Shown piece after piece: positions 3,928 to 51,130 of a DNA stretch of 64,000 bases. Made by a program: the position numbers and the translations under genes. Location of the stretch: assembly GCA_001829415.1 (NCBI GenBank), contig MIBE01000070.1, positions 45,041-109,040 of the forward strand, written 5' to 3'. Position 1 is the stretch's first letter, and each line of letters opens with the position of its first letter. This stretch comes from Spirochaetes bacterium GWF1_51_8. Lineage in GTDB: Bacteria > Spirochaetota > Brevinematia > Brevinematales > GWF1-51-8. The notes under the pieces were generated by a model. The model saw only the letters and a program-made list of their open reading frames with translations. It was not told where the DNA came from and ran no database searches.

Positions 3928-4349
3928 TTATCTGAATGGATTCACGATTGTTAATTCATCATCGAAGACCATTTCGTTCTGAAGGTCTTCGGTATAAAGC
4001 ATTTCACATCCGCACGAAAGAGAAGATGAAATTATCAGCGAATCCCAATATGATATATTCGAGCGTGAACGAATCTCCAGAGCTTTTAAATATCATTGCG
4101 GGTAACTGAGTGAATATGATTTTCAGGTATTAACAAAATGAACTCAATCAGACTTTTTTCATTGAGCGGAGGCTGCATCTTTTTTATACAGATGTTACAG
4201 AACTCGGAAATTACCTGGGTACTGACAAAACAGTATTCCGATTCGAATAGCTCTTTTAATAGGCTTTTCGAGATTTCCTGTTTTTCGGGATTTCCGTTAT
4301 CAAAGGAATACACTAAAATGTTTGTATCGAGGAAGCATCTACCTTTCAT
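3928..4349 (-). pseudogene. vapC: PIN-domain VapC toxin interrupted by a single frameshift
   Basis: The N-terminal part (4349 down to 4086, 'MKGRCFLDTNILVYSF...') ends at TAA 4086-4088. The PIN C-terminal part ('KALEIRSRSNISYWDSLIISSSLSCGCEMLYTEDLQNEMVFDDELTIVNPFR') continues in another frame to the stop at 3928-3930. The shift lies in the t/a run 4084-4090. All four PIN acidic positions are retained. Confidence 0.75.
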
Positions 4350-4536
4350 GAAGTTCATCTCTTGTCCAGCGCGCGACACTACCTTTATACCCCTCGATGA
4401 TCCTCAGGGCGTGCGAAAAACTTGATTTTTCGATGTTTTCAATAGGTAATTGAATTTCTATTTCTATGCGGATTTTAGGAAGGTCTTTTTCCTGTAGTTC
4501 GATTTTTCCATTTTCGTAAATTCCATGCAGAATCAT
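4339..4536 (-). CDS. Small antitoxin-like protein (DUF104/VapB-like) upstream of vapC
   Basis: 'MILHGIYENGKIELQEKDLP...' resembles DUF104-type antitoxins. GGAGA RBS precedes the ATG at 4536. Its stop overlaps the vapC start by 11 nt. Confidence 0.6.
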   Translation of the reverse strand: MILHGIYENGKIELQEKDLPKIRIEIEIQLPIENIEKSSFSHALRIIEGYKGSVARWTRDELHER

Positions 4537-4554
4537 TTTATTTCTCCAAAACAT

Positions 4555-5192
4555 TTATTCTTTCTTATATATTTTACTACAAAACAATTAAAAGGCAAGA
4601 AAATAGAAATGAATATTGATCGGGGGAATGGGTTTCTACCCCTCGATGCTTTGACTTCGTAGGGCGCATGGCATTAAGCGGTCTCCCCTTCCGCGAGAAT
4701 ATGTGACGAATAAGGGATTCTTTTCTATACCCCAATAGCGCGCGGATTTCACGGATTTTATAGATTGACACGGATCGGAGCCGGCCGCGCACGGTGACCG
4801 CCGGGAAATACAAATGCAGTTCGCACGGAGCACCCCTCGATTTACTCGGGGCAGGCGCGGAGAAATAAGCAGGGATGTTTATTCAAGAGAGATCATCATA
4901 CTCCCATAGCTATACTTGCCATCATATGTTATGAAATTGACATTAAAACCACGATGCCGTGAAAGTAAAACGGTATCTTTCATCAGATGTTCATGGTATA
5001 ACCTCTGCGTACTCTATGTGAAATTTTCTATTCGTCGATAGTCTCAACTCGCGTTCATTCGCGGATCGATCAATCGTGATTTATCCCGTTTCGCATCCGT
5101 TAGAACCGTGGAACTATCGCCGCGTCGGCCGAGGGATGCCGCGGAATACACAGTGAAAAGGTGTTTTGAAATCTAAAATGAATCAGAAAATA
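4555..5192. repeat. Intergenic patchwork of short repeat modules (no credible CDS)
   Basis: 4729-4748 is the perfect reverse complement of 23434-23453. 4817-4860 matches 23096-23139 at 41/44. 5004-5070 matches 23183-23260 at about 80%. Confidence 0.75.
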
Positions 5193-5222
5193 TTTTCGGG
5201 GCGGCGGAAACCGCCCCGATTT
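5193..5222 (-). terminator. Hairpin downstream of the lipoprotein gene (possible bidirectional terminator)
   Basis: 8-bp GC stem cggggcgg/ccgccccg (5197-5204 / 5211-5218) with A/T-rich flanks. The U-tract is imperfect. Confidence 0.45.
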
Positions 5223-5235
5223 GGATATAGCATAC

Positions 5236-6184: not shown

Positions 6185-6248
6185 AGCTCATGCTTCGGCA
6201 CGCTCATGCTTCGGCAAGCTCATGCTTCGGCAAGCTCAGCATGACGGA
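6185..6248. repeat. 16-nt tandem repeat (3 copies plus 1 degenerate)
   Basis: Units are agctcatgcttcggca / cgctcatgcttcggca / agctcatgcttcggca / agctcagcatgacgga. It runs into a 'catcccgagcacttgtcccg' module. Confidence 0.85.
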
Positions 6249-6431
6249 ATGTCATCCCGAGCACTTGTCCCGCGTTTCTCCCGGCATGCCGAGGGGTTCC
6301 CCGCCGAGCCCTCTGTGCGGAATTGCCTAATAAGCGCCCATCCGTGTAAATCGGTACACAGCTTCGTGGTGCCCGGCTTCTGGGTATAATAAAACTAAAC
6401 GGTCATCGAGCGCGGCCGAGATGCCCGCCAT

Positions 6432-11084: not shown

Positions 11085-11272
11085 AAGGGGTTGTCCCAAA
11101 AGTACGGAAAAAGTAGAAAAGTCTGTCACTGCGAGGAACGAAGTAATGAAGCAGTCTATGTAACTGTTTATCAGTTAATAATATAGATTGCTTCGGCTAT
11201 GGTTCGGCAAGCTCACCATGACGCCTCGCAATGACAAATATTCTCTATAGTACCCTTTTGGGACAGCCCCTT
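11085..11272. repeat. Composite palindromic element, family R1, copy 1 (fills the nadC / rod-binding convergent spacer)
   Basis: Outer IR: aaggggttgtcccaaaagtac (11085-11105) with gtacccttttgggacagcccctt (11250-11272). Inner IRs: gtcactgcgagg/cctcgcaatgac, and gaagcagtctat (11148-11159) with atagattgcttc (11183-11194). Confidence 0.85.
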
Positions 11273-11279
11273 ACTTATT

Positions 11280-11624
11280 TCATAGGAGGTTATCGGAGTT
11301 TTGGGTGCGCTTGAGGTAATCGTAGATGAATTTCCCGATCCCGAGCGATCCGTCGTAGGCGGTCTGACGGGCATACTCGGTGTAGAGCATGTCCTCGAAA
11401 ATTTCCTGCTTGAGTCCGCCGTCGAGCCATTCGTCCTTGGGGACGGTGCTCCGCATCGATTTATACATTTCCTGAATGAAGAGCGCGGAGAATTCGTCGG
11501 AAACCTCGTGCAGTTGTTTGTCTTCCATTGAAGCGTACTTTGTTTCTTTCATCGCGGTCGCCTTCGAAAGGTTGAGCTTTTCCTGAGCGGAATAAAGGTA
11601 TTCGCTGCCGAGTTTGATATCCAT
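11280..11624 (-). CDS. Flagellar rod-binding (FlgJ N-terminal-like) protein
   Basis: 114 aa. 'FSALFIQEMYKSMRSTVPKDEWLDGGLKQEIFEDMLYTEYA' matches the Rod_binding domain. Confidence 0.75.
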   Translation of the reverse strand: MDIKLGSEYLYSAQEKLNLSKATAMKETKYASMEDKQLHEVSDEFSALFIQEMYKSMRSTVPKDEWLDGGLKQEIFEDMLYTEYARQTAYDGSLGIGKFIYDYLKRTQNSDNLL

Positions 11625-11683
11625 GTTTCCTCCGGGTGTCTATCCGAAATATCGGAAGAATCCGGAAAACGATAAGCGGATAC

Positions 11684-14455
11684 CTAAAGATTGAAGAGTA
11701 TTTTCACAGTCGTGCCCCTGCCGATCCGGCTGTCGATCTCGATAGACGCCTCGAGCATTTTCACGAGCTGGTAGACGATATAGAGCCCGAGTCCGGTCGC
11801 CTGCTGGGGGTCTTTGGTAGTGAAAAACGGGTCGAAGATGCGCGGCTTGTTCTCGTCGGGAATCCCGCACCCGTCGTCGCTGATATCGATCCTGACATGG
11901 CCGCTGTCGGGTCGGAATACTTTTATCTGGATCGCCCCTTTCTCGTCCACTGCGTCGACACTGTTTTTTATCAGGTTATAGATGATTTCTTCGATAGTCA
12001 CTTCGTCCGTCACGAGGATACCCGCGAGAGGATCGACATCGATCTTCAGGGAGATTGACGGTGATTTCTTCCGCGTCATGCTGCCGAAGACGGGATCGAG
12101 GGTTTTGAAGAAGTCCCTGAGGTCGATAGGTTTCTTGGTGATCTTCTCGTGGCGGGCGAAAATATGCATCCTATTGGTGATTTTTATTCCGCGGTCTACG
12201 GCCTGCGCGATATTCTCGAGGTCGTTCTTCGCCCGCATGTTTTCAGTATCGTCCATGCTGTAAAGGATCAGTTCGTAATACCCTTTGATGATCGCGAAGA
12301 TATTGTTGTACTCATGCGAGATACCCGCCACCAGATTTCTCATCGTGTCCATCTTCTGCTGCTGGATCAGCAATGCGGTCATCTTATCCTTCTGCTGTTC
12401 CATCTCGATCTGCGCGTTAATATCCATGATATGCGAGAGGACGGCGGGCTTCTGGTTGTACTCGACAATCGACTCGTAGACCGAGAACCAGCACGGCTTC
12501 CGGTCTTTCCTGACACCCTTATAGGAATACTGGATGCCGGTGTTTTCGTCTATCCTCCGGGCGGTATTGGGATCGGGATGCACTTTGATAGTGGAATCCT
12601 CCGCGGCTAAGACCGCCGGGTCGAGACCGTTGTCGATATCTTCCTGGGTGTATCCGGTGATATCCATGAACTTCCGGTTCGCGTAGACGATCCGGTTTTC
12701 CTGCATCAGATAAATACCGGTGAGAGCGTGCTCGATAACCGCGCGATAGGTCGTCTCTGAGTTTTGGAGCTGACGGAAAAGCATTTCGGTCTCGATAAAT
12801 TGGGCGAGGGCGGATGCGATGTTGTTCAGGGTAAATTCAGTCAGCGCGGTATTCATCGCTAACGGGATACCGATACCGATAAACCCGTAATTTTGCTTGG
12901 ATGTGGTGATCCTGAAAAAGAGATTGCATTGATCCTTATCGCAGTTTCTATCGATAGCCTCGTTTGAATCGAAGTAGAACTTTTTCGAAACGTCGCCCTG
13001 CCCGGAAGGAAGCCTGCCGTACTTATAGTAGCCCTCGAAGCCGCGCAGGTAGACATACAGCCAGACCGCTGAGAAGTAACGTTCGATCAGCCTGCCGATC
13101 AGGTCGATGGAGTTCTGGCGGAAATCCTCGCGGATCAGGAGCTTGAAGATCGAATTGAGAAATTCGGTCGAATGGATCCCCTGAAGGATGCCCATGATGT
13201 TTTTGATAACCATGATATAGAGCGGTTTGTCGTCCTGGATATGGAGCGAGATACTGATGTTCGCGGGAAAGAGCGAACTGTCCTTTCGGCGGCAGTCGCT
13301 ATTAAATCCGTGACTGATTTCGGCGGATACGGCGCTCAGTTCCGCATCCAGCACTTCATGTTCGGCGAAAAGCGTTTTCGGGGTGATGGCGTTCAGTTCC
13401 TCAGACGTGTATCCGAACTCAATCAGCGTCTCATGGTTGTAATGGATGAGCCGGTCGCCGGAAAAGACTACTAACGGAACCCCTACGGCGTCGAAGATTT
13501 TCCGGTTGTAGCTGTTCAGGGAATTGAGCTGACGGTTTTTCTGAGTCTGAAAAAACAAATAAATTAGCGCAAATAGTATAACAAGGGAAAATGCTGATGT
13601 TGCTATCACCGATGCGGAAAGGTTATGAAGATAGAGTTTACTTAATTGGGATGCGGTTAAGGAAGCATCGAAAAGGGTCGTGATATACTGATTTTGGGTA
13701 TTAAAGAAAAGCCAACCCAAAACAAAAGAACCCACAAGGCAGAGGATACCCAGATTAATAAGTATTATCTGCCGACGCTCGAAGATATCTTTGTCGTTGA
13801 TGAAGAAAAGAATAAACGATGAATAAAACATACCAAGATGAAGATTAAAGAGAAAAAAGTGAAAGTCGGATTTTTCGACTAAGGTGAGGTAATAAGTATA
13901 AAAAATCGCACTGAATAACAAGCAAAAGATGATGATATAAGCGATACGTGTAATTTTTAATCTATATTTCATATAAGAGAATAATGAAACAAGTGTTCCC
14001 GCGAAAATCACCGCGATAAAAATAACATATATAAAATAAAGAATTCTAATCTGAAAAATTGCGCTCGTAATCGCAGATAATAAAGCCGCGATATAGACAA
14101 AATAGATTGCGTTACCTTTTAGAACGGTTTTTTTTATCATTCGAGAGACAAAAAACATACTCACGAGAAATGTTGAAGTAAACATCAGGTTTAAAGAAGG
14201 AATTTGATATCGAAACTCGATATAATATAAGACCTGAGCTACTGCAAATAAGAGTGAAGTAATGAAAAAATTATGAAGAAGCTTTTTTTTAGGAAAAACT
14301 TTCACTAAGAAAAAAACCACTATGCTGAGAAAAATACATAACACTACCGAAGCAAATACCGTATAATCGGCGAGAGGGGAATGGACACCCGCAGGTTGAA
14401 GAAACTCGGTGTTATAGAGTAGTTTGCTTAGGGAATTTGTCATATCGTATCGCAT
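11684..14455 (-). CDS. Sensor histidine kinase: polytopic membrane module, PAS regions, HisKA and HATPase
   Basis: 923 aa. H-box 'GISHEYNNIF', N-box 'IYNLIKNSVDAV', G-boxes 'DDGCGIP' and 'GLGLYIV'. The N-terminal ~300 aa are multi-TM. Confidence 0.9.
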   Translation of the reverse strand: MRYDMTNSLSKLLYNTEFLQPAGVHSPLADYTVFASVVLCIFLSIVVFFLVKVFPKKKLLHNFFITSLLFAVAQVLYYIEFRYQIPSLNLMFTSTFLVSMFFVSRMIKKTVLKGNAIYFVYIAALLSAITSAIFQIRILYFIYVIFIAVIFAGTLVSLFSYMKYRLKITRIAYIIIFCLLFSAIFYTYYLTLVEKSDFHFFLFNLHLGMFYSSFILFFINDKDIFERRQIILINLGILCLVGSFVLGWLFFNTQNQYITTLFDASLTASQLSKLYLHNLSASVIATSAFSLVILFALIYLFFQTQKNRQLNSLNSYNRKIFDAVGVPLVVFSGDRLIHYNHETLIEFGYTSEELNAITPKTLFAEHEVLDAELSAVSAEISHGFNSDCRRKDSSLFPANISISLHIQDDKPLYIMVIKNIMGILQGIHSTEFLNSIFKLLIREDFRQNSIDLIGRLIERYFSAVWLYVYLRGFEGYYKYGRLPSGQGDVSKKFYFDSNEAIDRNCDKDQCNLFFRITTSKQNYGFIGIGIPLAMNTALTEFTLNNIASALAQFIETEMLFRQLQNSETTYRAVIEHALTGIYLMQENRIVYANRKFMDITGYTQEDIDNGLDPAVLAAEDSTIKVHPDPNTARRIDENTGIQYSYKGVRKDRKPCWFSVYESIVEYNQKPAVLSHIMDINAQIEMEQQKDKMTALLIQQQKMDTMRNLVAGISHEYNNIFAIIKGYYELILYSMDDTENMRAKNDLENIAQAVDRGIKITNRMHIFARHEKITKKPIDLRDFFKTLDPVFGSMTRKKSPSISLKIDVDPLAGILVTDEVTIEEIIYNLIKNSVDAVDEKGAIQIKVFRPDSGHVRIDISDDGCGIPDENKPRIFDPFFTTKDPQQATGLGLYIVYQLVKMLEASIEIDSRIGRGTTVKILFNL

Positions 14456-15648: not shown

Positions 15649-16360
15649 GGGACTTGAGTTCTCGACGGTAATGGCTCCTGAAAATCCTGCCGAACAAGTC
15701 GATCAGTTCGTTACGCACAGAAACGGAAATCTCCCTGCCGTCCCAGAAACTCATCCCGTCCGCGTTTTCGCAGTCGTAGATAAACCTGAGAGTGCCGTTA
15801 CCCAAACGGTGCTTTTCCGATGTCAATTCGCTCAGCTCTCCGGTGAAATTGCCCGAGTAATAGGGAAAAATTCCTTCCGCTATCAGCGCGGTCACGATGA
15901 AATAGAACGCGTACTTCTCGAAACGGGTATCTGCCGCGAGGCGTTTCATGAGTTCCGGAAGGAGCGGGTAGAGGGCGAACGGACTGTCGCCGGAGAGGGC
16001 GGTATCGAGGATTTCGAAAACGAGATAGAGATACGCGAGCCGTTTGAGCTCGCCGCGGATACCGTCGAAACTGTCGCATAACGATATCTCGCGTACCGAG
16101 GGGAGCTGGTTTTCCTGTGGGATTTTCGGACGTACCGCGATCCCGTTCACGAGGTTGCCGGCGAGCACGGCGCTTTTACGCCTGCTGTTCTGGCGCGAGG
16201 AGCCGAATACCGATAGCCGGATTTTACCGTGGTTCTCGTCGATCAATGTGAGGATGCGGTTGCCGTCGCCGAATGGGTCGGTCTTGAGGATGATACCCTG
16301 AAAACGGATCAGGCGCGACGAATGAAATTCTTCGTTGGTTTCGCTATTCCTTGGGTTCAT
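15608..16360 (-). CDS. recO: DNA repair protein RecO
   Basis: Start is set at the internal ATG ('MNPRNSETNEEFHSSRLIRFQGIILKTDPFGDGNRILTLIDENHGKIRLSVFG'), giving a RecO-type N-terminal OB-fold. Overlaps the upstream gene by 17 nt and the hydE 3' end by 41 nt (convergent). Confidence 0.8.
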   Translation of the reverse strand: MNPRNSETNEEFHSSRLIRFQGIILKTDPFGDGNRILTLIDENHGKIRLSVFGSSRQNSRRKSAVLAGNLVNGIAVRPKIPQENQLPSVREISLCDSFDGIRGELKRLAYLYLVFEILDTALSGDSPFALYPLLPELMKRLAADTRFEKYAFYFIVTALIAEGIFPYYSGNFTGELSELTSEKHRLGNGTLRFIYDCENADGMSFWDGREISVSVRNELIDLFGRIFRSHYRRELKSLTLLSQSGNPRSS

Positions 16361-17246
16361 TGGAAAGCTTTTCCAGAACGGTATAGCCCCGGAAACGGCC
16401 GCGCTTATCGAACAATTCTTTGACCACGGCGAAATTTCCCGAGCCGACGTAATATATCTTCCTGCCCTTCTGCTGAAGGTCGGGTTTTTGCTTCTGGAAC
16501 TCGCCCACAATACAGTCGAAATGCGCGTATTGTCCGGTAGGTTCGTGCTTCAAGGCGTAGATCAAGCCCTCGATCGGTTTCTCGCAGAGCGGGCAGATAT
16601 GCTCTTCTTTTTCAAGTTCCTGTATCTTCTTGCTGGCTTCGAGCCCGTTCAGGCCGAGCTGGTCTTTGATCTCGTCGGAAAGATTGACCGGCGGGTAGAT
16701 TTTCCTCGGCGGTTCCTTACGGGTCAGGTCGGTGCGGCCGTCGCGGTTCTGCGGGGGACGGAAGCCTCCGCCCTGCTGCTGCGGGCGGTTCTGGCCCTGG
16801 GGCTGTCCCTGTTGGGGCCTGTTCTGGTTCTGTCCCTGCGGACGAGGGCCTTGCCCTTGCGGGCGGTTCTGGCTCTGGGGCTGTCCCTGCTGGGGTCTGT
16901 TCTGGTTCTGTCCCTGCGGACGAGGGCCTTGCCCTTGCGGGCGGTTCTGGCTCTGGGGCTGTCCCTGTTGGGGCCTGTTCTGGTTCTGCCCCTGCGGACG
17001 AGGGCCTTGCCCTTGCGGGCGGTTCTGGCTCTGGGGCTGTCCCTGCTGAGGCCTGTTCTGGTTCTGTCCCTGCGGGCGGCTTTGACCCTGAGTCTGAGGC
17101 TGTGCCGGGGGTTGTGCCTGTCCCTGCTGAGGCGGCTGGGGCGCGCCTGTTTCGTCTATCGGCCCGTCCTGTCCGTCGGGGCGGTGATGGTAATGCGGCT
17201 TGCCCTGCGGCGAAAGAGGCCGGTGTCTTTTTTTATTAAACGACAT
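16344..17246 (-). CDS. Q/G/P/N-rich repeat protein with a C-terminal CxxC...HxxC domain, function unknown
   Basis: 300 aa, with an AGGAG RBS and a consensus promoter on the minus strand. Tandem 26-aa units 'PQGQNQNRPQQGQPQSQNRPQGQGPR'. C-terminal 'HICPLCEKPIEG...YAHFDCIVGEF'. Confidence 0.7.
   Translation of the reverse strand: MSFNKKRHRPLSPQGKPHYHHRPDGQDGPIDETGAPQPPQQGQAQPPAQPQTQGQSRPQGQNQNRPQQGQPQSQNRPQGQGPRPQGQNQNRPQQGQPQSQNRPQGQGPRPQGQNQNRPQQGQPQSQNRPQGQGPRPQGQNQNRPQQGQPQGQNRPQQQGGGFRPPQNRDGRTDLTRKEPPRKIYPPVNLSDEIKDQLGLNGLEASKKIQELEKEEHICPLCEKPIEGLIYALKHEPTGQYAHFDCIVGEFQKQKPDLQQKGRKIYYVGSGNFAVVKELFDKRGRFRGYTVLEKLSNEPKE
16781..17075. repeat. 78-bp tandem repeat, about 3.8 copies, inside the Q/G/P-rich gene
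   Basis: Units start at 16781, 16859, 16937 and 17015, with 2-3 differences per unit. The fourth unit diverges after about 17073. Confidence 0.9.
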
Positions 17247-17266
17247 TGTTTTGCTCCTGATGTACT

Positions 17267-17295
17267 ATTATAATAGCTTTCGTCGATTTTTGCAA
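17267..17295 (-). promoter_or_regulatory. sigma70-type promoter of the Q/G/P-rich gene / recO unit
   Basis: On the minus strand: TTGCAA (17295-17290), 17 nt, TATAAT (17272-17267). Confidence 0.6.
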
Positions 17296-20886: not shown

Positions 20887-20894
20887 CGGGGGTG

Positions 20895-21275
20895 GTGACA
20901 AACTCATTTTGTCATTGTGAGGCTGTCATGGTGAGCACTTGTCCCGCCTTCCACGGCGGGATGCCGAACCACAGCCGAAGCAATCTATCTCATTATCAAA
21001 TATGATTTTATACCGGCTGCTTTTCCTCTCCGTGTCACGCAGTGCCGGAAAACTCTTCATTCTGTGAGTTCGTAAATACTCCACGAAGGGATTGTTGACG
21101 AAGTTGAAATTTTCGCTGTTTTTTGTCACGCGAGCCTGCCTTCTACCGAAGGTAGACAGGGAGCAAAGCGACCTGTCTCCTTCTCCTGAGAAGGAGAAGG
21201 CAGGCAAAGCAGTCTGTATAATTCATATTCCAGTAATTAAATAGATTGCTTCGGCATATGCCTCGCAATGACAAT
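20895..21275. repeat. Family R1 copy 2 plus an inverted R1 half-copy and nested hairpins
   Basis: 20911-20988 ('gtcattgtgagg...gccgaagcaatctat') is the inverted form of the right arm at 21241-21274. The left arm 21123-21135 carries an inserted multi-hairpin, cctgccttct (21135-21144) with agaaggcagg (21195-21204). Confidence 0.8.
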
Positions 21276-21309: not shown

Positions 21310-22488
21310 TTATTTCTTCTTAAGCTTTTCCAGAGCGCGTTCGTAGAAATCTTCCACCGCCCACATCATCCGGTACTCGCCGAAATTGACCATCAGGTTT
21401 TCGCATTCCTTCTTGACCAGGCTCCATTGCTCGGTATACACAAGCGCGAGAAGTTTCTGGTAGAGGATTTCCGGCAGAAATTTATCGTTCTTGAATTGGA
21501 CCGCGCCCTTATCCGCTATCGAGATGACTTCCTGATAGAGAGAGTGCTGTTTATCGGTATCGTTAAAATACTCTTCATAGAGGTCGGCGAGTTCCATCAC
21601 AAGGTTCTGGAGATTCCATGTCGCCTGCGCGGGTGTGTCCCCCTGATAGTAGGCGTAGAACTTTTTAAACGCCGCATCGGGGTCTTTCGCGGATAACTCT
21701 TTATACTCTGGGTCGCCGATGATATCGACAAATGCTTTCCACGGGGTCTCCTGAAGGCGTATCTGCATCTGGTGTATTTTGTAGTACTTATCGTTGATCT
21801 CTTTCTGGTAACGCATCTGTTTGAAGTCGAGAAGGAATTTGTAGGAATCCTCGATCCCCTCGTAGGGTTTGAGATAGTTCGGGTCGAGTTTGCTGGCTTC
21901 CTGGAACTTCTTCAGCGCTTCTTCGGCGATCCCCAGATCGAGCAGGTCGAGTCCCTCGTAATACGTCTTCACCGCGTCGAAGGAATACGCCATCGGCTGA
22001 GCGAGCGCGACAGGCTTCTTGATCCCCATCGCGGTCAGAACCTTGCCCGCCAGTTCGTTCTGGACGACCAGAATGTTCTTCACCACACCCGACGACGAGA
22101 ACGTGCCGACAATCTTGCCCGATTCGGAATCGGTGATCTTGCCGTCGATCCGCACCGAACTGCCGTTGACCACGAACGAGCCGTAGACGAGCTTTTTAGC
22201 GTTGAGCATCTGCCCGATCTTCACCGCCTCGTCCTCGTCCACCAGTCCAGCGAGCACGAGCTTCTGCTCCTGGATAATCTTCTGCATATTCTCACGCTCG
22301 ACTACCTCGATCTCCGACGATTCAGAGATGTCGGTGATGAGCATATCGGCGATGGCCTTACGGAGCCATTCGTAATCCTTATTTCCGGTCGTGTTGTCGA
22401 AGTACAACACCGAGATGACGTCCTTCGCGGACATCTGCGAAACGGGAACAAGAGATAATAGAACAAAAACGGCGAGTATTTTTTTCAT
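21310..22488 (-). CDS. Exported protein with a CsgG/LpoB-like N-terminal domain and helical C-terminal half
   Basis: The start follows an AAGGAGAAG RBS. Signal peptide 'MKKILAVFVLLSLVPVSQMSA'. 'VLYFDNTTGNKDYEWLRKAIADMLITDIS...VVERENMQKIIQEQKL' is CsgG/TolB-N-like. Confidence 0.7.
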   Translation of the reverse strand: MKKILAVFVLLSLVPVSQMSAKDVISVLYFDNTTGNKDYEWLRKAIADMLITDISESSEIEVVERENMQKIIQEQKLVLAGLVDEDEAVKIGQMLNAKKLVYGSFVVNGSSVRIDGKITDSESGKIVGTFSSSGVVKNILVVQNELAGKVLTAMGIKKPVALAQPMAYSFDAVKTYYEGLDLLDLGIAEEALKKFQEASKLDPNYLKPYEGIEDSYKFLLDFKQMRYQKEINDKYYKIHQMQIRLQETPWKAFVDIIGDPEYKELSAKDPDAAFKKFYAYYQGDTPAQATWNLQNLVMELADLYEEYFNDTDKQHSLYQEVISIADKGAVQFKNDKFLPEILYQKLLALVYTEQWSLVKKECENLMVNFGEYRMMWAVEDFYERALEKLKKK

Positions 22489-23530
22489 CGGCTTCTCCTT
22501 TTTAATAATATATATCTTAACCTGTATCGGCGCGGGTATCAAGATTTTCGGGTATCATATAGTACGGGGATGGTCCGGGCCGGTAACCTCATAAGGGATT
22601 TTGCGTCTCGGCGGTTGTTCAAATCTGCTCAACCTACAGTGAGGCTGTTGAATTATTCGTGTGCCTTCGTGTTCATTCGTGGATGCATTGCCCTAGTGCT
22701 TCTTGCGACTTCATATATTTGCGGTCATGCCTTTTTCTCGGTGTCCTTGGTGTTTTCTGTGGCAAGCCTTCGACATCCCGTGGAGGATCACGGGACGAGC
22801 GTTCAGGTTGACGTTTTTACTTCCGCGCTAATCCGTTCAATCAGCGTGAATCGGTGATTAATTGGGATAATATAATTGCCTTATATAATACACTATGAGG
22901 CCGCAGATACTTCGACTTCGCTCAGTACAAGTAAAGCGGATACTCTCCGCATTTTCCTCTGCGCCTCCGAGTCTCTGCGGTAGCTCTTCCGGCTGTTCAG
23001 ACAGAAAAATACAAAAACCGTACCGCAGAGACGCAAAGACGCAGAGACGTCCCCGCTGCGTGAGGACAAGCAAAGACCGCGGAGAAAAAAAATACAGTTC
23101 GCGCGGAGTACCCCTCGATTTACTCGGGGCAGGCACGGTGATGCAAAGCAGACTCTGTTGAAAGAGAGACCTAACTCCTTCTCTCTGCGTACTCTGTGTG
23201 AAATCTTCGATTTGGCGCGGGTCTCAATTCGTGTGCATTCGTGTTTATTCGCGGATAGATTTCCTTCCCGCCGGGGACGCTTGCCCATCGGTTGTGCGGG
23301 GTGTCGAAGGTGTTCTCACGGAGTATAACAACTCATTCGCTCTCTATGTCTCTTCGTCTTTGCGGTCAATTCCCGCAGTGCCTTTATGTTTTTACGTTTG
23401 TTCAAATCCGTGATAATCCGTTGAATCGGCGAGAATCCGCGCGCTATTGGGGTTAAAATTGATACCCCAATTTAACACGGATTGCACGGATTACGAAGGT
23501 TTACACGGATATGAATATTACGCAGGATAT
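22489..23530. repeat. About 1.0 kb of intergenic patchwork of repeat modules (no credible CDS)
   Basis: Modules are shared with 4555-5235 and 50556-51130; see the findings for coordinates and identities. ORFs here lack an RBS and known motifs. Confidence 0.75.
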
Positions 23531-23612
23531 CTAAGGCTTGGGCAACTGGGGCGCTGGAGGAGCGGGCTCGTCGTGCAGTATGGATTTTCCGTCGGGGAGT
23601 TCTCCTCGACGG
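23531..23612 (-). repeat. Divergent tandem duplicate of the 3' end of the GlgD-like gene
   Basis: The minus strand reads 'LPDGKSILHDEPAPPAPQLPKP*' against the gene end 'IPDGKSILHDEPTPPTPPQLPKA*' (23620-23691). Each has its own stop codon. Confidence 0.85.
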
Positions 23613-23619
23613 AGCAAGA

Positions 23620-24813
23620 TTACGCTTTGGGTAACTGCGGGGGTGTTGGCGGAGTGGGCTCGTCGTGTAATATGGATTTCCCGTCGGGGATCGTCCGTAG
23701 TGCCGCGATCTTCGACGGTTTGACAAAACTTTCGATATAGCAGTTTCCGCCGATTTCGGTGCGCGCGGGGATGACCACGTCCTTCCCGATCAGAGTGACG
23801 CCGAAGTTGAGGATTTTCGGATAGTCCTCGTTCCGTTTCGACGGTTTCGGGTTGCCGATTACGACATTGCGCTCGATATTCGGGATCGAGTTGTCGCCGG
23901 AGAACTCGTCAATGATCGTGTTCTGGATCACGGCTCCGGCGCCGATATGGTTGCCCGGCAGGATGATCGAGTTCTTGACTATCGCGGTCGGGGCGATTTT
24001 GACATTGGAGAATATCACCGAATCCTGGATTTTACCGGACACGTCGGAATCCTCGCCGACTATCGAATGGATAAAGTGACAGCCTCGCGCGATAGTCGCG
24101 GGAACAAGCCTCGCCTTCTCGCCGCGGATCGGGACATACGCGTTATACTGGTCGTAGGTCAGATAGCTGTCGATCATATCGATATGGATCCGGTAGTACT
24201 CTTCGATACTCTTGAACGGGATGACATAGCCGTCGGTGATATCGGTGACCGGCATATCAGCGTCGATCTCTTCGCGGAATTTCGGCACCTCGATCAGCGT
24301 ATCGTGCTTTTCGATGATCGCGGTCATTTTTTTCATGAAGAGATTTTTATCCAGCACAATCAGCGGGCATGCTTCGCGTTCGCCGTCTTTCCAGCGGAAC
24401 GCGGTGGACTTCGTTTTCACATACTCCTGGTGGTAATGGCGGAGATTGAACCAGACCGGGTAGCCGCCGTTAATCATGCCCACCATGCTGACCTGTTTCT
24501 GATTGGCATATTCGTTGAAAAATTCGATGAACTCGGTCTTGAGGTCGAGTTTGTCGAATACATAGAAGTCCAGAAACGGCCAACTGCTCATCAGGTAACG
24601 GGCGACGATTTCCTTATCCTTATCCGTGAAGATGAGGAAATCCGTGACCCCGACAGAGTTCAATGTCGCGATAGAGAAGTCGATATTCCTGAAACGGGGC
24701 GAGAACGGGAGAAGGAAGTGGTCGACATACTCGTCAAACGACAGATACCCGCCGAAGGAATTCCCGACTATCACGCCGAGGTTGAGACGTTTTTTTCCGC
24801 CGAATATACTCAT
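23620..24813 (-). CDS. GlgD-like degenerate nucleotidyltransferase with a left-handed beta-helix domain
   Basis: 397 aa. The N-terminal NTP-transferase-like region lacks a clean GGxGxR motif ('VGNSFGGYL'). C-terminal hexapeptide repeats 'VIFSNVKIAPTAIVKNSIILPGNHIGAGAVIQNTII'. Confidence 0.7.
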   Translation of the reverse strand: MSIFGGKKRLNLGVIVGNSFGGYLSFDEYVDHFLLPFSPRFRNIDFSIATLNSVGVTDFLIFTDKDKEIVARYLMSSWPFLDFYVFDKLDLKTEFIEFFNEYANQKQVSMVGMINGGYPVWFNLRHYHQEYVKTKSTAFRWKDGEREACPLIVLDKNLFMKKMTAIIEKHDTLIEVPKFREEIDADMPVTDITDGYVIPFKSIEEYYRIHIDMIDSYLTYDQYNAYVPIRGEKARLVPATIARGCHFIHSIVGEDSDVSGKIQDSVIFSNVKIAPTAIVKNSIILPGNHIGAGAVIQNTIIDEFSGDNSIPNIERNVVIGNPKPSKRNEDYPKILNFGVTLIGKDVVIPARTEIGGNCYIESFVKPSKIAALRTIPDGKSILHDEPTPPTPPQLPKA

Positions 24814-29172: not shown

Positions 29173-29672
29173 TCTATTTCTCCCGCCGACTCGGAGGAAT
29201 CCGGGGCAGTGTCTGGAGGCGGGTATTTCTCCATGAACACGAGATCGATCTTGTCGTTCAGCCGGAGCTTCTTGAAAATGACATAGCCGAGCTGTTCATA
29301 GAGCCTGATATTGCCCGCGCTCTTTTCGCCGGTGAAGAGCTCGAAACGGACGGCGCCGGGAAACTCAGACTCTATTCTGACCATGAGTTCCCGCCCGATG
29401 CCCCGTCTCCGGTAATCGGGATGAGTCATCAATCTCCCCACTAAACAAGCCTTGTTGTCATCGAGGCAAGCCCGCACCGAGCCCACAAGCCGCCCGTCCT
29501 CGATAACGGCAATGACCGTTTTCTGGGCGCATTCCGCGGTCAGGTCGTCGAGTGTCTGGGTGAGAGGCGGGATGGTATAGTCGCCGTAAAGCTCCGCTTC
29601 GGTGATATAGGCAAGTTTTTGCAGTTCCAGCAGTTCGGGGTATTCGTCTGGGCGGACGTAACGGATAGTCAT
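29169..29672 (-). CDS. GNAT-family N-acetyltransferase
   Basis: 'LMTHPDYRRRGIGRELMVRIE' is the acetyl-CoA-binding motif (R/QxxGxG/A). ATGA overlap with the downstream gene. Confidence 0.8.
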   Translation of the reverse strand: MTIRYVRPDEYPELLELQKLAYITEAELYGDYTIPPLTQTLDDLTAECAQKTVIAVIEDGRLVGSVRACLDDNKACLVGRLMTHPDYRRRGIGRELMVRIESEFPGAVRFELFTGEKSAGNIRLYEQLGYVIFKKLRLNDKIDLVFMEKYPPPDTAPDSSESAGEIE

Positions 29673-29879
29673 AGAAGTTCCTAATATTTCGATAAGGGCG
29701 ATCTAAAAATTATAAACATCATAACATTAAGTATGGTATATTTTGACAACACGCCCAATGGTCACTTCCTTGCCGCCGAGAATCGGCGGTTATTAGAAGT
29801 GCCCATAGTATATTTTCTCTGATAAGCGGGGGTTTGTCAAATCGCGGGGAACTGTTCCCGAATTCGGATGTGCAAACCC

Positions 29880-30464: not shown

Positions 30465-30498
30465 GTCACTTCTTTATCTGGGTATTTATAGAAGTGAC
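30465..30498 (+). promoter_or_regulatory. Hairpin in the flgK leader, immediately 5' of the RBS
   Basis: Perfect 9-bp stem gtcacttct (30465-30473) with agaagtgac (30490-30498) and a 16-nt loop. AAGGAGG follows and the ATG is at 30514. Confidence 0.35.
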
Positions 30499-37297: not shown

Positions 37298-37458
37298 AGT
37301 TCCTATCGGCTCATTCTTCATCATGCTTCGACTATGCTCATCCCTCGACATCCCGGTGGGGAAGCCGGGACAAGAGCTCGGGATGACATTTTCTCAATGC
37401 TGCGCTCCGGATGACTTTTCTAAAACCCGTGGTGATGAAAAGTGTCACAATATTTCTA

Positions 37459-47079: not shown

Positions 47080-47321
47080 GGGTTCCTCCTTCCATATAGC
47101 TTAAATCAAAAACGCAAGTTCGGCAAGTTATTATTGGGCGGTTCTAAAAACCCCAAATATTATTAACACGTGAGGTAGTGTGAACAATAATATCACCCAA
47201 TAGGCACTACCTTGGCTTCCTTCAAGGAGGTTGGCGAGGGGGTAAAATAAACTTTCCGGGGGCATTGACAATGGAACGTCCGCCCTTCTTCTTGAAAAAG
47301 GGTTTTACGGAAAAACTTCAT

Positions 47322-47353
47322 TTTTTTATAACCGCCGATTGTGAAAAACGCTC
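47322..47353. repeat. 32-bp perfect direct repeat, left copy (flanks the DUF433/DUF5615 module)
   Basis: ttttttataaccgccgattgtgaaaaacgctc, identical to 48071-48102. Confidence 0.9.
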
Positions 47354-47407: not shown

Positions 47408-47436
47408 TTGAATATTAGTCCCGGGATGTGTATAAT
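47408..47436 (+). promoter_or_regulatory. sigma70-type promoter of the DUF433/DUF5615 module
   Basis: TTGAAT (47408-47413), 17 nt, TATAAT (47431-47436), with TGT immediately upstream (extended -10). Confidence 0.6.
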
Positions 47437-47467
47437 TTATATATATTACGGATTTTATGAGGACGAT

Positions 47468-47701
47468 ATGGTAAAAAAATGGGTGATTTCCGACCCTTCG
47501 GTAATGATGGGTAAACCGCTCATTAGAGGAACGAGGATTACCGTGGAACATATACTTGAGAAAATGTCCGCTGGGGAAACGATTGAGCAGGTTCTCTCGG
47601 CGCATCCATCCCTCACAAAACAAGCCGTCCTTGCCGCTTTGGAATTCGCCGCGGAAGCATTGAAAGCGGATGTGGTGTACCCGATCGGAGCAGGGAAGTA
47701 A
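47468..47701 (+). CDS. DUF433-family antitoxin-like protein
   Basis: 'GKPLIRGTRITVEHILEKMSAGETIEQVLSAHPSLTKQAVLAALEFA' is the DUF433 signature. The start follows a GAGGA RBS. Confidence 0.8.
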   Translation: MVKKWVISDPSVMMGKPLIRGTRITVEHILEKMSAGETIEQVLSAHPSLTKQAVLAALEFAAEALKADVVYPIGAGK

Positions 47702-48051
47702 TGAGGATTCTTGCCGATGAAAACATCGATGCTCAACTGGTTCTCGAACTTAGGAATCTGGGGGAAGATGTTGTTTTTATCGCCGAATTGAATCCCGGAA
47801 TCAAAGATCAGGAAGTGTTCGATATCGCCTCCGTTGAAAAAAGAATTCTACTCACTTCGGATAAGGATTTCGGTGAAATCGTGTTTCGACAGAAAAAAAT
47901 CACCGAGGGAGTGATTCTCCTGCGATTGAGCGGATTGAGTATCTCGAACAAAATCTCGAAGTTATTGACGCTTATCAAGGATCACAAACCGGAAATACCG
48001 CACTCATTTTCCGTAGTAACAAAAAACAATATTCGTATCAGAAGAAGATAA
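47701..48051 (+). CDS. DUF5615-family (PIN-like) toxin-like protein
   Basis: 'MRILADENIDAQLVLELRNLGEDVVFI...LLTSDKDFGEIV'. The start overlaps the DUF433 stop (TAATG). Confidence 0.8.
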   Translation: MRILADENIDAQLVLELRNLGEDVVFIAELNPGIKDQEVFDIASVEKRILLTSDKDFGEIVFRQKKITEGVILLRLSGLSISNKISKLLTLIKDHKPEIPHSFSVVTKNNIRIRRR

Positions 48052-48070
48052 TAATTACAAAAACATTTTC

Positions 48071-48102
48071 TTTTTTATAACCGCCGATTGTGAAAAACGC
48101 TC
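48071..48102. repeat. 32-bp perfect direct repeat, right copy
   Basis: Identical to 47322-47353. It contains the -35 of the downstream GT2 promoter. Confidence 0.9.
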
Positions 48103-50555: not shown

Positions 50556-51130
50556 TTTCTTCTCCGGCGGGCGGTACAACGGTTAATTCCCGCGCGAAAT
50601 AGTTTGAACGATTTTTAGGGATTCGTCAACGTATCGCGGCTAAGACACGTTCTATTGGGATTGAATTTTGACCCCAATTCTCACGGATTTCACAGATTAT
50701 ACAGATTATCACGGATAGAGCCGGAGAATCACCGCAAAGACGCGAAGGCGCAGAGAGACCCAGAGAGAAAAGGAAAAGCCGTCACCCTTCGGCATCCCGT
50801 GGAGGAACACGGGACGAGTGCTCAGGGTGACAGCTTTTTTACACGCTGTTCCTCCCGCGCACTTTGAAGCGCGTTTTACTTCCGGGAAATCCAACCAAGG
50901 GCGTAAGTCCGGTTACAAAGTTTGAAACCTATGAATTCTTCATATCGTGTTAAGCCCGACTTGGATTTTCCGGCTTTTCCCCTAAGCTTCATCTTGCGCG
51001 GCATACGCTTGTCCTGAGCGAAGTCGAAGGGTTCTTTTCTTCTTTCTTTCCTATGCGGCCTGTCCCTGAGGGATTTCCTGAGGGGGAAAGAAAGAAGATT
51101 CTTCCCGAATATCCCGGAAAATAGCAAAAT
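50556..51130. repeat. Intergenic patchwork of repeat modules (no credible CDS)
   Basis: 50652-50689 resembles 23444-23483. 50731-50759 resembles 23032-23058. 50788-50831 resembles 22768-22812. 51008-51029 is the reverse complement of 22910-22931 (21/22). 14-bp perfect IR 51048-51061 / 51095-51108. Confidence 0.75.

Follow-up and report, generated by a model that had tools for sequence, protein, structure and literature searches.

What fills a long stretch of DNA between two genes when no gene can be recognized in it? The question is raised by a 1.1-kb spacer (positions 22489-23619) lying downstream of a GlgD-like gene and upstream of a CsgG-like gene, both on the minus strand, in Spirochaetes bacterium GWF1_51_8, an uncultured, Brevinematales-like groundwater spirochaete from the Rifle aquifer. 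Positions refer to the window, i.e., the whole 64-kb stretch of DNA analyzed, which reads as the reverse complement of a 312.5-kb scaffold (sample SAMN03203004); in an independent annotation the spacer corresponds to positions 11195-12325 of locus L001. An initial annotation had described it as a gene-free mosaic of short hairpin-forming modules that recur across the window and could not be assigned to a named family. According to our analyses the spacer is, with a probability that we put at about 0.7, an accretion of non-coding interspersed repeats of several lineage-specific families, some similar to repetitive extragenic palindromic (REP) sequences and others to miniature inverted-repeat transposable elements (MITEs), assembled in the manner of the bacterial interspersed mosaic elements (BIMEs).

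Repeat content of the spacer

Sensitive BLAST of the spacer against the window recovered, at or close to the positions first reported, all seven similarities on which the mosaic description had been based. That between 22768-22812 and 50788-50831 extended to 22767-22834 vs. 50786-50852 (81% over 69 nt, E 2e-10), that between 23096-23139 and 4817-4860 exceeded the claimed 44 nt (23075-23169 vs. 4796-4892, 79% over 99 nt, E 1e-14), and that between 23183-23260 and 5004-5070 was found as an ungapped match of 23183-23241 to 5003-5061 (81%, E 1.5e-9). Segment 23444-23483, reported as resembling 50652-50689, was covered by matches of 23406-23476 and 23425-23511 to 50649-50717 (70-77%, E 1e-7), and the two reverse complements, 22910-22931 of 51008-51029 (21/22) and 23434-23453 of 4729-4748 (20/20), were found as described. 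The resemblance of 23032-23058 to 50731-50759 returned as 23022-23047 vs. 50731-50756 (88% over 26 nt), a match that is weak when taken alone (E 0.03) and consists of a low-complexity tandem 8-mer. The similarities survived statistical alignment, as 12 spacer matches of at least 31 bits were found in the rest of the window against 0.05 expected, the mean of 40 spacers simulated with an order-1 Markov model of equal dinucleotide composition; real matches reached 72.5 bits and the top simulated score was 35 bits.

The modules recur well beyond the spacer. Copies were found elsewhere in the window and in the adjacent upstream 9 kb of the scaffold, in two other genomes, those of the sister species Spirochaetes bacterium GWF1_49_6 and of a third member of the Brevinematales, and among metagenome contigs. 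At least four families meet in the spacer: a tagged REP (module B), the MITE-like A-D element (200-320 nt), module E (90 nt) and module C (115 nt). They are repeated in GWF1_51_8 and its relatives, lie in intergenic DNA, occur in both orientations and in variable order, and differ by presence or absence at orthologous sites of the two sister species. At 4690-5070 the order is C and then A-D, and at 50633-50852 it is C, half of E and then the REP; because order and orientation differ between loci, the word mosaic is apt, and the view that no single duplicated element is involved is supported. The description of the modules as hairpin-forming was right for three of them, namely E (22950-23052, DNA fold -23 kcal/mol, z -4.9 vs. 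shuffles), C (23401-23515, -22.4 kcal/mol, z -3.45) and the REP (22758-22818, z -1.8, supported by covariation), of which E and C alone fold well beyond the shuffles, and wrong for the modules at 23070-23215, since the A and D segments alone fold no better than shuffles. The repeats of the spacer interior are the following:

22640-22870, plus strand: composite unit 1 (direct-repeat families D2, D3 and D4; pairwise alignment)
22655-22692: tandem 10-mer array ATTCGTGTGC, 2.7 copies (Tandem Repeats Finder, TRF)
22758-22818, plus strand: long-form REP, module B (covariance model R1, 62.7 bits, E 3.5e-19)
22808-22870, plus strand: left half of module C, with a T-rich lead, three to four AATCNGYG units and ATTGGGA (similarity)
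22862-22889, plus strand: promoter-like hexamers TTGGGA-16-TATAAT, predicted by consensus match only (10/12 matches)
22900-22937, plus strand: degenerate short-form REP, TTCGAC-TTC-GCTCAG (R1 11.4 bits, E 0.4, marginal)
22957-23046: module E, 90-nt hairpin (inverted repeat I1; TRF period 8)
23075-23264, plus strand: A-D element (three-copy alignment; BLAST E 1e-14 and 1.5e-9)
23212-23455, plus strand: composite unit 2, a diverged direct copy of 22640-22870 with another core (repeat search, alignment)
23340-23364: lone fragment of a module E arm, GTCTCTTCGTCTTTGCG (inverted repeat I5, 94% complementary to 23032-23048)
23401-23515: module C, full 115-nt palindrome (self reverse-complement match)

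Within the window, repeat matches were confined to intergenic spacers, apart from two stretches matching the syntenic sister locus L117 (14202-14550 and 44722-44835) and one repeat inside an open reading frame (ORF), at 16733-17208. The latter is a tandem internal repeat of about 78/156 nt (67-77% identity) in the overlapping ORFs 16335-17273 (plus strand) and 16344-17246 (minus strand), and probably encodes a repeat-containing protein of no recognized family.

A nested, tagged REP

In module B a variable outer stem is joined through a conserved internal loop (TTCGRCA / RAGYGCTC) to an inner hairpin (TCCCGTG..CACGGGA). On the minus strand the spacer copy reads CGTC-AACCT-GAAC-(TGTC-tagged inner hairpin)-GTCGA-AGGCT, and the family in general, read on this strand, consists of a CGTC or TGTC tag, a 5-bp stem arm that usually starts with AT, GAGC, a loop, GYCGA and the second stem arm. 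The stem is made of five Watson-Crick pairs, a tandem G.A and one G-C pair, and thus amounts to eight positions only if the G.A are counted. Two forms exist: the loop is 5 nt (CNNGY) in the short form (CGTC-ATNNN-GAGC-NN-GYCGA-NNNAT), represented by 11 of the 27 copies parsed from the window and sister loci, while GAGC and GYCGA are separated in the long form by 23-26 nt that make up a second hairpin, which itself begins with TGTC. The tag is CGTC in 13/27 copies, the one in the spacer included, and TGTC in 12/27; the stem starts with AT in 19/27 and AC in 7/27 (AA in the spacer), and the commonest 3' tails are AGC (7), GAG (6) and GAC (3), CCA being absent from the eight commonest.

The window contains eight copies, and 93 kb of sister-species DNA contain 19; a shuffled window never yielded more than one. 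Besides the spacer copy, the full-length ones in the window lie at 20919-20979, 37333-37393, 50777-50837 and 6245-6304, and three more are short and devoid of the inner hairpin; head-to-head dimers occur at 6219-6300 and in related loci (L070 630-748, L004 7196-7314). The outer stem is supported by covariation in the 24 copies from which model R1 was built, 84.7% of the cells being paired vs. 73.1% in shuffles and 34-43% with slid partners, and 40 cells having changed on both sides vs. 16.9 in shuffles. A scan of one genome per species with the REP core pattern hit at least 104 stretches of DNA; among the matches listed, many were in two genomes only, GWF1_49_6 and the Brevinematales metagenome-assembled genome (MAG) DeMMO6_14, and full-length strong R1 matches were restricted to these two. 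The occurrence of module B in about 80 other genomes and in other phyla was rejected, the corresponding matches covering the pattern-selected core alone and being attributable to chance.

All REPs lie between real genes, the five located inside long ORFs of the crude gene map being covered by frames that span the repeats and were taken as spurious. Their contexts are convergent (4), divergent (5) and tandem (16), and in tandem contexts seven point with the genes and 10 against them. The stems contain 16 G.U and 19 A.C cells, with no RNA-strand signature; because REP orientation is mixed and A.C is as frequent as G.U, no strand-specific RNA role is suggested.

The statement that no module could be assigned to a named family no longer holds for this one. 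Set against the published description, module B fits the CGTC-tagged REP superfamily (CGTC-1 to CGTC-4; Di Nocera, De Gregorio and Rocco, 2013; PMC3733652). According to that description, CGTC REPs have tag variants TGTC or CCTC, AT-initial stems of 8-9 bp, loops of 4-5 nt and a 3' tail that is mostly CCA, families with other loop lengths being noted as well; they are reported in Spirochaetes (Turneriella parva), Bacteroidetes, Chlorobi, Thermotogae and Proteobacteria, and no dedicated transposase is known for them (PMC3733652). Like them, module B carries an unpaired CGTC or TGTC tag at one end (25 of 27 copies), has a 5-nt loop in its short form, and is intergenic, multi-copy and sometimes arranged in head-to-head dimers. 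Its stem, usually AT-initial and AA-initial in the spacer, would reach the described length only with the tandem G.A counted. It differs in that most copies, including that of the spacer, hold a second TGTC-tagged GC hairpin of 23-26 nt in the loop, in the conserved tandem G.A that replaces full pairing of the stem, and in the 3' tail, which is not CCA.

The repeat most often matched in the window, at 11085-11238 and 20888-21076 (11-12 matches in related loci), is a larger element with the layout GTCACTGCGAGG..ATAGATTGCTTCGGCTATGG-REP-..CGCAATGAC, where the REP lies within a further stem, ATTGC/GCAAT, i.e., a third level of nesting. Full-length copies of module B (56-69 bits) are also present in two IMG/VR contigs classified as viral (L003 4367-4427 and L004 7196-7314). 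Compared by eye, L004 7180-7280 is nearly the same as the L070 stretch of DeMMO6_14; what was sequenced may be DNA of a host, or of its prophage, in that lineage.

The A-D, E and C families

Segments 23096-23139 and 23183-23260 had been taken for separate modules; both similarities are genuine, and the separateness is not, as both belong to one A-D element. Its three copies, of about 200-320 nt, lie at 23075-23264, at 4796-5067 and, on the reverse strand, at L121 1785-2102 (the ranges aligned were 23060-23290, 4780-5085 and the reverse complement of L121 1770-2115). On the scaffold, the L121 copy lies outside the window, which it precedes by 7.5 kb; it has 88% identity over 78 nt, and relatives were found in loci L109 and L115. 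The element has conserved ends and a variable center of 30-120 nt: a conserved left end (GACCG..GGGAAA.ACAAATACAGTT), a 24-nt insert (CCCCTCGATTTACTCGGGGCAGGC) that is highly conserved and present in two of the three copies, a short hairpin in the center (GACTCTGTTGAAAGAGAGAC), and a right end that is conserved as well (CTCTGCGTACTCTGTGTGAAATCTTCGATT) and is followed by an ATTCGTG array. Inside it are inverted arms of about 22 nt that match imperfectly, and no duplication common to the flanks of the three copies could be read from the alignment.

Module E is the strongest inverted repeat of the 64-kb window. Its 26-nt arms, 85% complementary, are composed of the tandem 8-mer CGCAGAGA and its complement, and a homologue was found in a metagenome locus (L112 731-832, 83% over 105 nt). 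Module C is a palindrome of AATCCGTG repeats, with arm units of 9-10 nt arranged as AATCCGYG units, ATTGGGG, a loop, CCCCAAT and CACGGATT units. Its other copies lie at 4690-4775, at 50633-50717 and, as a fourth one upstream of the window, at L121 161-264; the 9.4 kb of scaffold adjoining the window on its upstream side thus carry further copies of both C and A-D. The block AATCCGTG-N-AATCCGYG-..CTATTGGGGT was found in eight metagenome loci (L109-L116). Counts from the metagenome collection are lower bounds, as the scan missed the JGI contig Ga0209416_1001135, which carries the pattern copy found in the window at 4729-4775; the scanned collection seems to include only part of the metagenome of that contig.

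Local duplication and composite units

The spacer has also been remodeled by local duplication. Composite units 1 and 2, of about 230 nt each and about 575 nt apart, share the direct repeats D2, D3 and D4 (spacing 572-585 nt), and when unit 1 is aligned with 23212-23465 both ends are conserved and the cores differ, the core being the REP in unit 1 and the fragment of a module E arm in unit 2. Unit 1 is composed, in order, of an ATTCGTG 10-mer array, GGTGTC..GGTGTT, the variable core, GTTTTTAC, an AATCNGYG array and ATTGGG. The 10-mer array at 22655-22692 is 84% identical to 23227-23264, which closes the A-D element, and the left half of module C at 22808-22870 has 71-76% identity with 23383-23451. 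In the related metagenome contig L109, three tandem units of about 245 nt follow one another, each with an AATCCGYG array or C half, ATTGGGG, a REP-like hairpin and a long hairpin.

Such units could be read as genes for small RNAs (sRNAs), with ATTGGG.. / TATAAT as promoter, the REP or long hairpin as structured body and a terminator-like hairpin, the tandem units then being arrays of sRNA genes. The sigma-70-like hexamers at 22862-22889, with 10/12 matches, are followed about 45 nt on by a GC hairpin with a T-rich tail (22936-22950), the three L109 units retain their order, and the arm mismatches of E and A-D are mostly G.T on one strand (3 vs. 0 in the E of the window, about 7 vs. 1 in L112), hand counts that are too few to decide. 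However, promoter-like (3 vs. 1.4) and terminator-like (3 vs. 1.7) sites were not clearly above shuffles, and by reading no hexamer comparable to the -10-like one was present in the other C copies, the reason for which module C was rejected as a promoter. Moreover, module order and orientation vary between loci, REPs show neither a strand preference relative to genes nor an excess of G.U, and Rfam holds no matching family. Differences of 10-20 kcal/mol between strands in RNA fold energy are common in ordinary genic windows, and the asymmetry of the long hairpins was consequently rejected as a sign of selection at the RNA level. We consider an sRNA origin of the spacer quite improbable.

The borders of the spacer and its neighbors

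The idea that the spacer is assembled from repeat modules is correct for its interior and not for its outer parts. The latter and the adjoining genes are as follows:

21310-22488, minus strand: CsgG-like gene (Pfam CsgG, E 5e-13)
22489-22545, minus strand: ribosome-binding site (RBS) and sigma-70-like promoter of the CsgG-like gene, not a repeat module (promoter scan, conservation)
23531-23619, minus strand: relic of a 92-nt tandem duplication of the GlgD-like 3' end, including the stop codon, not an interspersed module (direct repeat D1)
23620-24813, minus strand: GlgD-like gene, hexapeptide/GlgC-like (Pfam)

The promoter-like site predicted for the CsgG-like gene has a -35 TTGATA and a -10 TAAGAT separated by 17 nt (22542..22514, minus strand), and segment 22493-22544 has 78-81% identity with the region upstream of csgG in the sister species. 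At the opposite border, 23548-23598 is 86% identical to 23640-23690 at a spacing of 92 nt (source copy 23623-23700), and the duplicated gene tail still reads, in another frame, LPDGKSILHDEPAPPAPQLPKP, where the GlgD-like gene has IPDGKSILHDEPTPPTPPQLPKA. By summing the parts listed, about three quarters of the spacer consist of repeats, the promoter segment and the gene-tail duplicate. The nearest database relative of the GlgD-like protein is that of GWF1_49_6 (76% identity), followed by proteins of Brevinematia with 35-48% identity.

With both flanking genes on the minus strand, the spacer is at once the 3' region of one and the promoter-upstream region of the other, and its role might be mainly cis-regulatory: the hairpins would terminate or stabilize the mtnA/glgD-like transcript, and the arrays (AATCCGTG, ATTCGTG, CGCAGAGA), whose period is a short 8-10 nt, would bind proteins controlling the CsgG-like promoter. 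A C-like block adjoins the GlgD-like stop codon at the same position in the sister species too, and REPs elsewhere are reported, in the CGTC REP study, to act in mRNA stabilization and termination (PMC3733652). Yet the same modules lie beside unrelated genes in convergent, divergent and tandem arrangement, so that they are not specific to this gene pair, and reading of the minus strand revealed no hairpin followed by a canonical T-run. The spacer of the sister species, furthermore, differs in sequence and includes three extra genes. We regard a mainly cis-regulatory spacer as very unlikely; both this explanation and that based on sRNAs are disfavored because the modules lie beside unrelated genes everywhere and the promoter- and terminator-like matches are neither conserved nor above shuffles.

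Absence of genes and differences from the sister species

The spacer is gene-free, as first claimed. The independent annotation called zero genes in it, a Pfam search of ten spacer ORFs gave nothing above noise, codon log-odds were negative for all 11 spacer ORFs tested (-0.02 to -0.88, vs. +0.17 to +0.70 for seven held-out genes used as control), and the longest ORF (131 aa) had zero homologues among 5.8e9 proteins. A tRNA/tmRNA scan found nothing, and the 64-kb window had zero Rfam matches at gathering scores. At permissive E-values Rfam returned microRNA-precursor models and one viral frameshift-element model, all on a generic long hairpin and with 14.6-25.2 bits, compared with gathering scores of 70-117. 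Nor did the spacer match plasmid and phage collections. An independent assembly differed from the window across the spacer by three mismatches in 21 kb; a short-read Logan contig equals 23214-29780 exactly, and both of its ends fall within repeats (23214 inside the spacer). The repeats break short-read assemblies.

In GWF1_49_6 the orthologous spacer (L117 11174-13385) carries repeat modules at both ends and three extra low-GC genes, two of which encode proteins of 227 aa (weak UDG-superfamily hit) and 178 aa (no family), the third being a small ORF (about 75 aa) rich in Cys. Because these three different genes occupy the orthologous spacer, the site between the CsgG-like and the GlgD-like gene is a variable island between conserved neighbors. 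That these three genes lie between the same neighbors would also agree with the GWF1_51_8 spacer being made of decayed genes, e.g., those of the sister species, or of the remnant of an insertion sequence. However, tblastn of two of the sister proteins against the window produced noise only (E above 0.8), the spacer ORFs have neither Pfam hits nor homologues, the plasmid and phage collections are silent, and about three quarters of the sequence are accounted for otherwise, as summed above. Decay is therefore scarcely tenable as an explanation, and the accretion of repeats is preferred.

The comparison with a close relative that had been proposed at the outset revealed presence/absence differences at orthologous sites of the sister species. 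Three other orthologous spacers differ by insertions or deletions (indels) made of hairpin repeats. In the HK-radical SAM spacer the sister species has a 154-nt insert with ATTAAGG on both flanks, a 34-nt hairpin (30465-30498) is present only in GWF1_51_8, and the csgG leader of the sister species has a 134-nt insert (L117 13386-13520 region). The last is an ATTCGTG-array hairpin flanked by a duplicated RBS and start codon, and sits between the ancestral RBS/ATG and the current csgG start. The two sister inserts are flanked by direct repeats of 7 to about 14 nt resembling target-site duplications. A difference of 146 bp between L117 and L118 was rejected as a polymorphism, being a scaffold gap of Ns.

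Some of these indels are copies of a further two-tier hairpin family, GGTCRCTTC .. CCGCCG-loop-CGGCGG .. GAAGYGACC, located at 29669-29819 (hairpin 29760-29804), 30465-30498 and L117 17990-18125; it has seven matches in related loci, and its copies are interspecies indels, including the 154-nt insert flanked by ATTAAGG.

Elsewhere in the window, a DUF433/DUF5615 (PIN-like) pair at 47408-48051 is bracketed by 44-nt direct repeats, 91% identical (47311-47353 and 48059-48102); it is probably a toxin-antitoxin cassette, and the bracketing repeats suggest that it was inserted. A Phd/YefM-ParE toxin-antitoxin pair and a short PIN-domain ORF (2113-2732 and 4086-4379), with a GC content of 38-40% vs. 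about 52%, adjoin the second large repeat spacer (4380-5235).

Comparison with known repeat systems and possible mode of spread

Like the BIMEs of Escherichia coli, the spacer is an intergenic REP cluster with other short conserved motifs in variable combinations, and the three tandem units of L109 recall the capacity of BIMEs to be amplified in tandem. In BIMEs the REPs are regularly spaced and alternate in orientation (PMC2817692), whereas the clear and the degenerate REP of the spacer share the same orientation with no regular spacing, and the companion motifs, at 90-320 nt, far exceed those of BIMEs in length and bear no sequence relation to them. REPINs are doublets of GTAG-type REPs mobilized by REP-associated tyrosine transposases (RAYTs). 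The elements of the spacer resemble MITEs and REPINs in being small (about 100-320 nt) imperfect inverted repeats with long hairpins, dispersed in intergenic copies and differing by presence or absence between related genomes. For A-D and C, terminal inverted repeats flanked by target-site duplications could not be defined; unlike REPINs, the REP of the spacer is of the CGTC and not of the GTAG type, and no RAYT or IS200/IS605-type transposase was found in the sampled DNA. A search of the literature for Brevinematales repeats, and text searches by repeat-encoded peptides and DNA strings, returned nothing relevant.

We infer that the elements have moved. They would spread at the DNA level by means of a trans-acting enzyme, landing preferentially in or next to existing copies, as suggested by REP-in-REP nesting, head-to-head dimers and clustering. 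They would be tolerated there owing to the position of the region, downstream of the GlgD-like stop codon and upstream of the CsgG-like promoter. Effects on the host would be secondary, the hairpins in the 3' untranslated region of the mtnA/glgD-like operon acting as putative barriers or terminators at RNA 3' ends, or the repeats serving as recombination substrates.

Several observations weigh against an accretion of mobile repeats. No transposase was found by tblastn of about 250 kb of sampled DNA with IS200 and IS608 TnpA sequences, a weak test that is not reliable for RAYTs, and no clean target-site duplications flank the modules inside the spacer. The spacer REPs, neither regularly spaced nor alternating, do not make a BIME in the strict sense, and the C-like block, kept beside the GlgD-like stop codon by both species, could owe its conservation to function rather than to a selfish origin. 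The copy numbers of C (4) and A-D (3) derive from 81 kb, and genome-wide figures would be an extrapolation. Finally, the indels between the sister species fit insertion with target duplication and, equally well, deletion between microhomologies.

A more far-reaching proposal, which we advance tentatively and consider doubtful, is that the REP family preserves direct traces of the multiplication of CGTC-type REPs and forms, together with C, E and A-D, an undescribed mobile repeat system of the Brevinematales lineage, rather than passive palindromes, that spreads via loop-targeted self-insertion. In the long form, one TGTC-tagged hairpin looks as if it had entered the 5-nt loop of a second one without change of orientation, and has GACA/GRCA flanks; self-insertion targeted to loops by a single-strand-specific enzyme is suggested by the nested hairpin being flanked in this way.

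Significance

Palindromic repeats that are interspersed, cluster together and are missing from RNA databases are already familiar, as are CGTC REPs in a spirochaete; the spacer is thus bacterial DNA of an ordinary sort, though unusually dense and nested, and no new biological principle is indicated. What is new is modest: a nested REP-in-REP with covariation, its companion families, and their density in an uncultured Brevinematales lineage. For annotation, long gene-free spacers in this lineage are repeat accretions and not missed genes, and these accretions account for breaks of short-read assemblies in its genomes. The companion families (the AATCCGTG palindrome, the CGCAGAGA hairpin and A-D) are absent from Rfam and from the plasmid and phage collections and could be catalogued. 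For the biology of the repeats, the lineage offers a Brevinematales case of CGTC REPs in which short and long forms occur side by side, and these two forms could help to work out how CGTC REPs spread, since no transposase is known for them.

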